Source: an uncultured Actinomycetota bacterium
GTDB taxonomy: Bacteria > Actinomycetota > Actinomycetes > Mycobacteriales > Pseudonocardiaceae
Assembly: GCA_963729115.1 (NCBI GenBank)
Contig: CAVSMR010000003.1
Location: 1,093,720-1,157,719, forward strand
DNA length: 64,000 nucleotides
Reading direction: 5' to 3'
Shown here piece after piece: positions 35,027 to 37,111 of the stretch. The first letter of the stretch is position 1. The number at the start of each line of letters is the position of its first letter. The notes under the pieces are model-generated. The model was not told where the DNA came from, ran no database searches, and saw only the letters and a program-made list of their open reading frames with translations. A program made the position numbers and the translations under genes.

Positions 35027-35476
35027 CTAGAGGGCCAGCTTCATGCCCACGTGGCTGGCGACGAAGCCCAGCCGTTCGTAGAACCGGTGGGCGTCCACCC
35101 GGCTCGCGTCCGTCGTCAGCTGCACCATGGCCGCGCCGTGCTCGCGGGAGGTCGCGATCGCCCACTGCGCCAGGCGGCGTCCGAGGCCGCTGCCGCGCTG
35201 GTCCGAGCGCACCCGCACCGCCTCGATCAGGGCCCGGGTCGCGCCGCGGCGGGACAGGCCCGGGATGAACGTCAGCTGCAGCGTGCCCACCACCGACTCA
35301 CCCGCCACCGCGACCGCGAGGTACTGGCGCGGGTCGGCGTCGATCTCCGCGAACGCCGCCGCGTAGGCCGGGTCGCCGGGGGACTCGCGGCGGGCCCCGA
35401 GCGGGTCATCGGCGAGCATGGCCACGATCGCCGGAACATCTCCTGCCGTGGCGCGGCGGATCACGAGATCATCCAT
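35027..35476 (-). CDS. GNAT-family N-acetyltransferase
   Basis: IEAVRVRSDQRGSGLG, VQLTTDASRVDAHRFYERLGF. Confidence 0.9.
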   Translation of the reverse strand: MDDLVIRRATAGDVPAIVAMLADDPLGARRESPGDPAYAAAFAEIDADPRQYLAVAVAGESVVGTLQLTFIPGLSRRGATRALIEAVRVRSDQRGSGLGRRLAQWAIATSREHGAAMVQLTTDASRVDAHRFYERLGFVASHVGMKLAL

Positions 35477-35551
35477 GCCCTCATTCAAACCGACCGGTAA
35501 CCGACTATCGGCGTATTCAGCCTTCCGGCATCGCGGAGTTACGGTCGGTGA

Positions 35552-36301
35552 ATGAGCAACGTGGCGCCCAAACGCGTGAAGACGCTCCTGACGCTGCTGA
35601 TCGCGGCCCTCGGCGTGTTCGGCCTGTCGACCGCCACGTTCGCGGCGACCGCGGCCACGGACACCACCGCGACGGCACTCGTCTCGCCGCCGTGCGGCGA
35701 CACGTCGAGCTACGACGTGGTGGCGCTGGCCGACCTGCCCCCCGAGGCGAGCGACACCGAGGACCTGATCGCGGCGGGTGGCCCGTACCCGTACCCGCAG
35801 GACGGCACCGTCTTCGACAACCGCGAGGGCATCCTGCCCGGGTGCGGCAGCGGCTACTACCACGAGTACACGGTGAAGACGCCCGGCAGCCCGGACCGCG
35901 GCGCGCGCCGGATCGTCACCGGTAGCGGCGGCGAGCACTTCTACACCGGCGACCACTACGAGACGTTCTCCCTGATCGACCTCGACGGGGGCGGCGGCAG
36001 CTCCTGCGGCAACGCCGAGCTCGAGACGGCGCCGATGTCCAGCCTGCCCGCCGAGGTGGCCGACACCGTGGCGCTGGTCCAGGCCGACGGCCCCTACCCG
36101 TACCCGCAGGACGGCACCGAGTACCAGAATCGCGAGGGCGTGCTGCCCGCGTGCGACGCCGGCTACTACCACCTCTACACGGTGCCCACCCCGGGCGCGC
36201 CCGACCGCGGCGAGCGCCGGCTGGTCACCGGCGGCGCGGGCGAGTTCTTCTACAGCCCGGACGACTACGCCTCGTTCGTGCAGGTCGACGTCAACGCCTG
36301 A
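35552..36301 (+). CDS. Secreted guanyl-specific ribonuclease (RNase Sa/N1/T1 family), two tandem domains
   Basis: Signal peptide; two copies of LP.E..DT..L....GPYPYPQDG....NREG.LP....YYH.YTV.TPG..DRG.RR.VTG. Confidence 0.9.
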   Translation: MSNVAPKRVKTLLTLLIAALGVFGLSTATFAATAATDTTATALVSPPCGDTSSYDVVALADLPPEASDTEDLIAAGGPYPYPQDGTVFDNREGILPGCGSGYYHEYTVKTPGSPDRGARRIVTGSGGEHFYTGDHYETFSLIDLDGGGGSSCGNAELETAPMSSLPAEVADTVALVQADGPYPYPQDGTEYQNREGVLPACDAGYYHLYTVPTPGAPDRGERRLVTGGAGEFFYSPDDYASFVQVDVNA

Positions 36302-36394
36302 CACGCCAGAAAGGCCCGGCCTCCCCCGACCACCCCGCACGAGACGGCAGACTGGGCCGTGGAGTCATGCGCCGGGGAGGCGGAGGAGGCACGG

Positions 36395-37111
36395 GTGTAC
36401 AAGGTGTTCGAGGCGCTCGACGAGCTCGTCACGATCCTGGAGGAGGCCAGGGGGCTGCCGATGACGTCCAGCTGCGTGGTGCCTCGCGGTGACCTCCTCG
36501 AACTGCTCGACGAGGTGCGCGACGCCCTCCCGGGGGAGGTCGACGACGCGCAGGACGTCCTCGACCGCAAGGACGAGATCATCGGCAAGGCCGAGCACGA
36601 GGCCGAGCAGACGATCAGCAAGGGCAACCTCGAGGCGCAGAAGGCGATCGAGGAGGCCCGCGCGGAGGCCGAGCGGATCGTGGCCGAAGCCCGCGCGCAC
36701 GCCGACCGGCTCGTCGCCGACGCCGAAGCGGAGGCGGACCGGACCGTCGCGGCGGGTCAGGCCAAGTTCGACGACCTGGTCAACCGCTCCCAGGACGAGG
36801 CGGACCGGATGATCCAGGCCGGCCGCGAGTCCTACGAGCGCCAGGTCGAGGACGGCCGGCTCGAGCAGGCCCGGCTGGTGTCCCAGACCGACGTCGTGCA
36901 GGCCGCGCACGCCGAGTCCGCCCGCATCCTCGACGCGACCGCCGACGAGGCCGCCCGCCAGCGCGGCGAGTGCGACGAGTACGTCGACAGCAGGCTCGCG
37001 GAGTTCGGCGACCTGCTCACCCACACCCTGCGCACGGTCGACAAGGGCCGCGCCCACCTGCGCGGGACCGCCCTCAACGGCAGTGCCGCGCCGTTCGACT
37101 ACCAGGCCTGA
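36395..37111 (+). CDS. sepIVA: SepIVA (Rv2927c-like) DivIVA-domain coiled-coil protein
   Basis: YKVFEALDELVTILEEARGLPMTSSCVVPRGD; position before yceD-rpmF-rnc. Confidence 0.85.
   Translation: MYKVFEALDELVTILEEARGLPMTSSCVVPRGDLLELLDEVRDALPGEVDDAQDVLDRKDEIIGKAEHEAEQTISKGNLEAQKAIEEARAEAERIVAEARAHADRLVADAEAEADRTVAAGQAKFDDLVNRSQDEADRMIQAGRESYERQVEDGRLEQARLVSQTDVVQAAHAESARILDATADEAARQRGECDEYVDSRLAEFGDLLTHTLRTVDKGRAHLRGTALNGSAAPFDYQA

Follow-up and report, generated by a model that had tools for sequence, protein, structure and literature searches.

A secreted tandem RNase Sa-type protein of the Pseudonocardiaceae with an intact domain and a second domain that lacks the catalytic residues

The sequence analysed (the window) is a stretch of 64,000 nucleotides from an uncultured actinomycetotal bacterium of the Pseudonocardiaceae (assembly GCA_963729115.1, contig CAVSMR010000003.1, positions 1,093,720 to 1,157,719). 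An open reading frame (ORF) with an ATG start at 35552..36301 on the plus strand encodes 249 amino acids (aa) plus a stop, and its product is built from two domains of the RNase Sa type connected by a short linker. Domain 1 has the complete active site of a guanyl-specific ribonuclease, and from its sequence is predicted to be one. Domain 2 is a homologue in which both the catalytic base and the catalytic acid have been replaced, while the loop that recognizes guanine is retained.

Organization of the tandem protein

The ribonuclease family PF00545 was found twice in the protein by Pfam search (E = 4.3e-45). In a profile search of the genome domains 1 and 2 scored 85.9 and 70.6 bits respectively, with a cut-off of 24; a search of the 249-aa protein against NCBIfam matched no family model. 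Residues 56-143 align with the RNase Sa chains of the Protein Data Bank (PDB) with E about 1e-33 (phmmer). This alignment sets the Sa numbering used here, and in it query Glu105 and His135 correspond to Sa Glu54 and His85. A large protein collection was searched and the best 120 homologues were taken, 116 of which have two domains; the domains were aligned to a common profile. The two-domain proteins among the best 120 belong to Actinophytocola, Amycolatopsis, Sciscionella, Actinocatenispora and Actinopolymorpha, and homologues share the N-terminus MSN(V/I)T. By the names of its homologues the window's genome is assigned to Actinophytocola. An AlphaFold2 model was calculated from a 113-sequence alignment, and the confidence at each residue is given as the predicted local distance difference test (pLDDT). 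The features of the gene, all on the plus strand, are as follows.

35552..36301, plus strand: coding sequence of the two-domain RNase Sa-type protein (ORF, Pfam, N-terminus shared with homologues)
35552..35653, plus strand: predicted Sec-type signal peptide, about residues 1-31/34 (read from the sequence; pLDDT about 50)
35690..35986, plus strand: domain 1, residues 47-145, catalytically intact (phmmer, Foldseek, residue conservation)
35693..35695, plus strand: Cys48, presumed to form a disulfide with Cys98 (35843-35845)
35819..35827, plus strand: guanine-recognition loop of domain 1, N90-R91-E92 (Sa N39-R40-E41; alignment)
35864..35866, plus strand: Glu105, general base (Sa Glu54; alignment)
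35954..35956, plus strand: His135, general acid (Sa His85; alignment)
35987..36004, plus strand: Gly/Ser linker GGGGSS, G146-S151 (sequence; pLDDT <50 at 147-150)
36005..36298, plus strand: domain 2, residues 152-249, pseudo-domain (second PF00545 stretch; pLDDT >90; clade support 100/95)
36005-36007 and 36152-36154, plus strand: Cys152 and Cys201, the domain 2 equivalents of Cys48 and Cys98 (bond presumed)
36128..36136, plus strand: guanine-recognition loop of domain 2, N193-R194-E195, kept
36173..36175, plus strand: Leu208, replacing the catalytic Glu
36263..36265, plus strand: Asp238, replacing the catalytic His, at a variable site

Starting at the N-terminus, the predicted signal peptide comprises a KRVK n-region, a hydrophobic core and an ATFA/ATA cleavage motif, all recognized by eye; on the same reading a twin-arginine motif and a lipobox are both absent from the region. 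A short Thr/Ala-rich stretch then leads into domain 1. In addition to Glu105 and His135 this domain has the phosphate-binding Arg116 and Arg120 (Sa Arg65 and Arg69), which are invariant in the 116 homologues. It is about 62-64% identical to RNase Sa over 91-92 residues, and shares with the enzymes RNase Sa, Sa2 and Sa3 of Streptomyces aureofaciens (PF00545, N1/T1 superfamily; PDB 1RGG, 1PYL, 1MGR) the fold, the catalytic Glu54, His85, Arg65 and Arg69, and the Q/N-R-E guanine loop; both are secreted proteins of actinomycetes. However, the Sa enzymes are single domains of about 96 residues with a Cys7-Cys96 bond, whereas the window protein adds the dead domain and has a different cysteine pair in each of its domains. 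Domain 2 is about 55% identical to its active partner.

The cysteine pair of each domain joins the N-terminal extension with Sa position 47, and its two members co-occur in about 100 (domain 1) and about 95 (domain 2) of the 116 homologues. About 13-15 homologues have a Cys6/Cys90 pair instead, in one or both domains, and this looks like a covarying alternative disulfide.

In the AlphaFold2 model pLDDT exceeds 90 in both domains and falls below 50 in the linker, with a predicted template modelling score (pTM) of 0.52. The protein is thus modelled as two well-folded beads, with no confidence in their mutual orientation. Foldseek searches of the PDB matched 1rge, 1pyl and 1mgr (RNase Sa, Sa2 and Sa3) with template modelling scores on the target (TMt) of 0.89-0.97 and a root mean square deviation of 0.6-1.0 Å, one domain being aligned in each match; among the solved chains none spans both domains (best score on the query, TMq, 0.37). 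A fixed contact between the domains, such as might be auto-inhibitory, was considered and finds no support in the low pTM and linker pLDDT, although as a judgement on pLDDT and pTM alone this is weak.

The original prediction for this gene, made from the DNA letters alone, had described two ribonuclease domains joined by a glycine linker, each with its own cysteine pair. This is confirmed by the double PF00545 match, the GGGGSS sequence and the pairs C48/C98 and C152/C201, and the codons it had assigned to the four catalytic positions (35864-35866, 35954-35956, 36173-36175 and 36263-36265) are exact.

The fusion is real, since contigs from soil metagenomes cross the junction: they span 35707-36066 and 35926-36119 with 0-1 differences, ruling out an assembly artefact. 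The gene is nearly unchanged on contigs of four soil metagenomes, inter-domain junction included. Near-identical copies (window 35500-36350) are present in several independent soil metagenomes, and those variants that could be placed affect the third base of a codon (35695 C>T for Cys48 and 36040 C>G for Ser163). A search of sequencing runs for the gene returned soil, plant and root metagenomes and two runs of unrecorded type, with no RNA run among them.

Conservation and descent of domain 2

The active-site residues of the two domains in the 116 two-domain homologues are listed here in Sa numbering.

Asn39: domain 1, N 116; domain 2, N 115
Arg40: domain 1, R 113; domain 2, R 113
Glu41: domain 1, E 116; domain 2, E 115
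Glu54: domain 1, E 116; domain 2, L 107, R 3, V 2, I 2, E 1
Arg65: domain 1, R 116; domain 2, R 80
Arg69: domain 1, R 116; domain 2, R 114
Asp84: domain 1, D 116; domain 2, D 114
His85: domain 1, H 116; domain 2, R 65, H 20, D 13, N 6, S 5, G 3
Tyr86: domain 1, Y 116; domain 2, Y 112
Phe89: domain 1, F 116; domain 2, F 114

Arg68 is likewise present in all 116 copies of domain 1. In domain 2 the residue at position 54 is aliphatic in 111 of the 116 sequences, and replacement of Glu by Leu is a conserved hallmark of the domain. The neighbouring position 53 (His in Sa) is H in 77, R in 18 and other residues in the remainder. Asp in place of His, as in the window protein, is found in a minority of the sequences, at a site released from constraint. 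It had been proposed that exactly the two catalytic residues were lost under selection; of the two changes, that from Glu to Leu is indeed conserved, but that from His to Asp is found in only 13 of the homologues, and the proposal does not hold for it. Without Glu54 and His85, domain 2 as judged from its sequence cannot carry out canonical acid-base catalysis, and while it is a homologue of the family it should not be filed as an active ribonuclease.

The most conserved stretch of domain 2 is the guanine loop, with column entropies of 0.07-0.21 compared with typical values of 1-2. Besides N193-R194-E195, domain 2 of the window protein retains R219, R222, R223, D237, Y239 and Tyr191. N193, E195, Y206, R223, G227, D237 and F242 are among the 36 invariant columns of the full alignment, and Tyr37, Val15, Pro58, Leu70 and Pro83 (Sa numbering) are conserved specifically in domain 2. 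The domain is free of stop codons and frameshifts in 116 of 116 homologues, from several genera and families. According to a table in PMC2956060 the crystallized 5K variant of RNase Sa (PDB 3a5e) carries the substitution E41K. Glu41 is therefore dispensable for the fold of RNase Sa, and its near-invariance in domain 2 argues for a ligand site that has been kept, and not for a purely structural constraint.

The distribution of the protein was followed in a family sample of 151 genomes searched for PF00545 and for the barstar family PF01337. Full-length tandem genes occur in four genera: that of the window (g1; the window's genome G000 together with G145, G039 and G083), g21 (four genomes), g41 (two) and g39 (one). 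Elsewhere in the family most genera carry an orthologue of one domain, preceded by the same signal peptide. When the domains were placed in a maximum-likelihood tree, those of the domain 2 type formed a single clade (support 100/95) across at least four genera, and the domain 1 sequences were intermixed with single-domain orthologues. This means that there was one ancient duplication and inactivation, after which domain 2 was either lost in some lineages or replaced at the locus. Branches are longer within the domain 2 clade than in domain 1. One genome has two adjoining, unfused single-domain RNase genes (G032:C2:1336414-1336827 and 1336874-1337290, minus strand), each matching query residues 2-146; this pair may resemble the stage before fusion.

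Selection was estimated by the Nei-Gojobori method (NG86) as the ratio of non-synonymous to synonymous substitution rates (dN/dS), pooled over five independent pairs; the confidence interval (CI) is given in brackets.

Five pairs pooled: domain 1, 0.29 (0.21-0.39); domain 2, 0.43 (95% CI 0.33-0.59)
Window's own genus only: domain 1, 0.35 (0.23-0.53); domain 2, 0.69 (0.45-1.08)

Overall domain 2 is under purifying selection that is looser than that on domain 1. Domain 2 gives 0.16-0.29 in g21, and one pair reaches 0.96. With homology to an enzyme, loss of the catalytic residues, a pooled ratio of 0.43 and a single clade across genera, domain 2 has the sequence properties of a pseudo-enzyme.

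Arrangements of live and dead domains are also found outside the family. Domain 2 alone was searched against 1.84 billion cluster representatives, giving 2322 matches, of which the best 150 were examined. Within these, 136 of the 138 single-domain representatives keep both Glu54 and His85. By contrast, 9 of the 12 multi-domain representatives tabulated have at least one domain missing Glu54 and/or His85, with Glu54 replaced by Leu, Gln, Met or Trp and His85 by Arg or Phe. None of the nine is without an intact domain, and NRE is retained in almost every case. In the tree of these sequences a dead domain often clusters with the live one to which it is fused; the live or dead label requires seven changes, and well-supported branches force at least three. 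In the sample examined, it is thus nearly always next to a live copy that catalytic residues are missing, repeatedly and with at least three independent origins, and one of these proteins, an active-dead-active array from the Caldilineaceae, belongs to another phylum.

Four metagenomic cluster representatives with multi-domain PF00545 arrays illustrate the variety (P0121, P0090, P0125 and P0126). The first two are the active-dead-active protein of the Caldilineaceae (424 aa) and a dead-dead-active protein (317 aa). An array of 385 aa has a cold-shock-like N-terminus and a hydrophobic segment, both recognized by eye, followed by an active domain and one with Glu changed to Gln; in an array of 391 aa two of the three domains have Glu changed to Met. 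P0196 (1087 aa, 12 matched stretches) was discarded as an RNase array because it is a low-complexity repeat protein.

The original prediction that domain 2 is selected and not decaying is upheld by these results, that is by the single clade in at least four genera, by the conservation of N39, R40 and E41 (115, 113 and 115 of 116) and by the recurrence in other lineages. Relatives have not kept Glu in domain 2 (Leu in 107 of 116), and the pooled ratio is well below 1.

Neighbouring genes and barstar

The genes flanking the tandem RNase are the following.

35027..35476, minus strand: GNAT acetyltransferase, divergent upstream neighbour, not barstar (family search)
36359..37111, plus strand: Glu/Ala/Asp-rich protein of 250 aa, downstream neighbour, not barstar (no Pfam match)

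Further out the gene is flanked by coaD and yceD, and neither is a barstar. Tandem and single-domain orthologues share the locus, in which the RNase is preceded by coaD (sometimes with the GNAT gene) and followed by the gene of the 250-aa protein, yceD, rpmF and rnc; the tandem copies of g41 are located away from it. The 250-aa protein appears coiled-coil-like by eye, and is syntenic between RNase and yceD with 55-87% identity in the sampled genera that share the locus. A scan of 35350-36450 for promoters and terminators found none, though such a scan is uninformative for a high-GC actinomycete.

No barstar was found at the coaD-yceD locus in about 26 syntenic relatives checked. The genome of the window does have two PF01337 genes (scores of 93.9 and 71.4 bits), confirmed by hmmscan, at C11:1130307-1130549 and C3:807612-807863, both unlinked to the tandem RNase. 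That on contig 11 adjoins a second RNase, which is single-domain and catalytically intact, and so forms a classical pair. The second, an orphan, shares a contig with the tandem gene, 322 kb away from it. The orphan (L002 1510..1884, plus strand, in the C3:807612-807863 region; PF01337, 3.1e-19) has ENWPALDECL in helix 2 in place of the usual NLDALxDCL, and its neighbours are a gene for a HypB-like GTPase, a possible phosphotransferase gene and an ORF of 339 aa.

Across the 151 genomes RNase is present in 120 and barstar in 135, and the two co-occur in 118 of the 120 RNase-positive genomes (Fisher p = 1e-9). In seven of the 11 genomes with a tandem gene there is just one barstar, and its gene lies beside a second, single-domain RNase. 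In many genomes where the syntenic RNase is the sole RNase, barstar is on another contig or hundreds of kb away. An unlinked inhibitor is therefore the rule for this group of orthologues. The absence of a flanking barstar that had been remarked upon in the window is thus correct, but is no peculiarity of this gene, barstar being supplied from elsewhere in the genome. Since seven of the tandem genomes have one barstar only, the orphan was rejected as a dedicated inhibitor of the tandem RNase in the sense of a conserved feature. The system resembles barnase-barstar and RNase Sa-barstar (PF01337; PDB 1AY7) in that the genome encodes barstar homologues, and differs in that the inhibitor gene is unlinked to the tandem RNase in every relative sampled; a linked barstar is found only beside the different single-domain RNase, on another contig.

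In G039, which belongs to the same genus, the RNase domain of the second RNase has been deleted, leaving a remnant of its signal peptide joined to an intact barstar (L037 3371..3925, minus strand, contig C4), and PF00545 is represented in this genome by the tandem RNase alone. From the sequence this fits a barstar that would protect against domain 1 in trans.

Proposed role of domain 2

The gene product would be exported by the Sec route and act outside the cell as a guanyl-specific ribonuclease of the RNase Sa (N1/T1) type, to which a pseudo-enzyme domain has been fused. Domain 2 arose by a single internal duplication in an ancestor within the Pseudonocardiaceae. Its base has been lost, with Leu then conserved in place of Glu, and the acid site has been freed and is Asp in the window protein. 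The domain has kept its predicted fold, its own cysteine pair, N193-R194-E195, the aromatic Tyr191 and Tyr239, and Arg223. Its ligand would be guanine in RNA, or a guanine nucleotide, bound without cleavage. On its flexible Gly/Ser tether it would hold the enzyme on polymeric RNA through avidity or local concentration, in the manner of the binding module of a secreted hydrolase. Before export the producer would be protected by the unlinked barstar encoded elsewhere in the genome. On balance we lean towards a domain 2 that binds guanine in RNA without cutting it and so strengthens the hold of the enzyme on its polymeric substrate. The recurrent loss of catalytic residues beside a live copy is the strongest indirect argument that a non-cutting domain benefits a secreted RNase.

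Several observations weigh against RNA binding. In g21, g39 and g41 domain 2 is without the 58-68 loop, including Arg65 and Arg68. The NRE loop, YYxL, Arg69 and the YTPDxYxTF motif are still there, and a function that is conserved can therefore rest only on the guanine loop, Arg69 and Tyr86. In the window protein Asp238 places a negative charge beside the phosphate site, where it should weaken binding of phosphate or RNA relative to the Arg typical of the family. Both domains are strongly acidic, with net charges of -12 and -11, unlike a typical RNA-binding module, although RNase Sa itself is acidic too; the family averages are -11.1 for domain 1 and -7.5 for domain 2. In the window's genus the ratio of 0.69 for domain 2, with a CI reaching 1.08, corresponds to weak constraint that is not clearly distinguishable from neutrality. 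Finally, many syntenic orthologues lack domain 2, so it is dispensable.

A domain 2 without any ligand, acting as an appendage that aids the folding, solubility or stability of domain 1 or shields it from proteases, would owe its conservation to the constraint of the fold alone. Exchange of the catalytic Glu for a hydrophobic Leu is what would be expected of selection for stability once catalysis is no longer needed, and the free variation of the acid site, the acidity of both domains and the independent, well-folded bead of the AlphaFold2 model agree with it. We nevertheless regard it as unlikely, because Glu41, tolerated as Lys in the folded 5K variant, is present in 115 of the 116 copies of domain 2, because no part of the domain is more conserved than the guanine loop, and because the independent lineages with a dead domain usually kept NRE as well.

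Rather less likely again is a module for binding protein, whether a barstar-type inhibitor (as an additional safeguard until export, or with domain 2 serving as an inhibitor decoy) or another partner, protein or cell-envelope. Domain 2 keeps Arg69, Asp84 and Tyr86, which we take to form part of the barstar-facing surface of RNase Sa and barnase (PDB 1AY7); replacement of Glu54 takes away a negative charge facing the acidic barstar; and in the window's genome the barstars outnumber the linked RNase genes by one. However, the equivalents of the barstar hot spots are not conserved, position 85 being R, H, D, N or S and Arg65 being present in only 80 of 116, and for this reason the decoy put forward in the original prediction is disfavoured. 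The loop carrying Arg65 and Arg68 is deleted in three genera, no dedicated extra inhibitor accompanies domain 2 in the seven tandem genomes with a single barstar, and barstar is cytoplasmic where the mature tandem protein is extracellular.

That domain 2 is a decaying duplicate, functionless and not yet lost, is very improbable and largely refuted. The ratio in the window's genus and the pair at 0.96, the longer branches of the clade and the many orthologues without the domain are in keeping with decay, but the reading frame is intact in all 116 homologues, 36 columns are invariant, the CI of the pooled ratio excludes 1 and the fold is predicted with pLDDT above 90. Least credible of all is an enzyme acting through other residues or on another substrate: His85 remains in 20 of the 116 sequences, and in RNase T1 a neighbouring His can partly stand in for the catalytic Glu, but position 54 is aliphatic in 111, position 53 is not conserved and the window protein has neither acid nor base.

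Binding of guanine-containing RNA by domain 2 thus remains the reading we favour, and a bacterial enzyme domain has, to judge from its sequence, probably been recycled as an RNA-binding module. A full-text literature search found no account of a natural bacterial protein in which an active RNase Sa-type domain is joined to a dead but conserved paralogue. The nearest published parallel is provided by the RALPH effectors of powdery mildews, RNase T1/F1-like proteins that have lost the catalytic residues and are still functional (bioRxiv 10.64898/2026.08.13.744637, PMC7857584). As described there, they belong to the same superfamily of microbial RNases and have persisted after losing catalysis. 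They are however eukaryotic, stand-alone, highly diverged and targeted to a host, whereas domain 2 is bacterial and covalently joined to the active domain, with which it is about 55% identical. Tandem pairs of an active and a dead catalytic domain are also found in the receptor tyrosine phosphatases (D1/D2) and the JAK kinases (kinase/pseudokinase). There too an internal duplication has left one copy catalytic and the other conserved without catalysis, but the folds are unrelated, the regulation is intracellular, and the window protein shows no sign of allosteric contact between its domains (pTM 0.52).

The family itself is well known, and database entries for homologues already exist, with generic RNase names. 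Textbooks use RNase Sa and barnase as models of folding, catalysis and the recognition of one protein by another. Annotations such as 'guanyl-specific ribonuclease Sa' and 'ribonuclease domain-containing protein' are applied to the protein as a whole, and give no hint that one half of it, judged by its sequence, cannot be an enzyme. That barstar is unlinked in this family bears on predictions of RNase toxicity from gene neighbourhoods. The tandem proteins offer a clean and easily testable system for the evolution of pseudo-enzymes, neat rather than astonishing. If the proposal is right, domain 2 would be a small, stable and natural guanine-binding scaffold.

On a broader scale, dead RNase Sa-type domains might be guanine-specific RNA-binding modules without cleavage activity that have evolved recurrently in several phyla (Actinomycetota, Chloroflexota and others), each time by duplication of a secreted RNase and inactivation of one copy. 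We hold this only tentatively, as somewhat short of an even chance. The domain 2 clade of Actinophytocola and Amycolatopsis would then be its largest and oldest example, and such modules would play, for nucleic acids, the part that binding modules play for secreted glycoside hydrolases. For the organisms themselves, a domain 2 that binds guanine or RNA would show how soil bacteria improve their capture of extracellular RNA.

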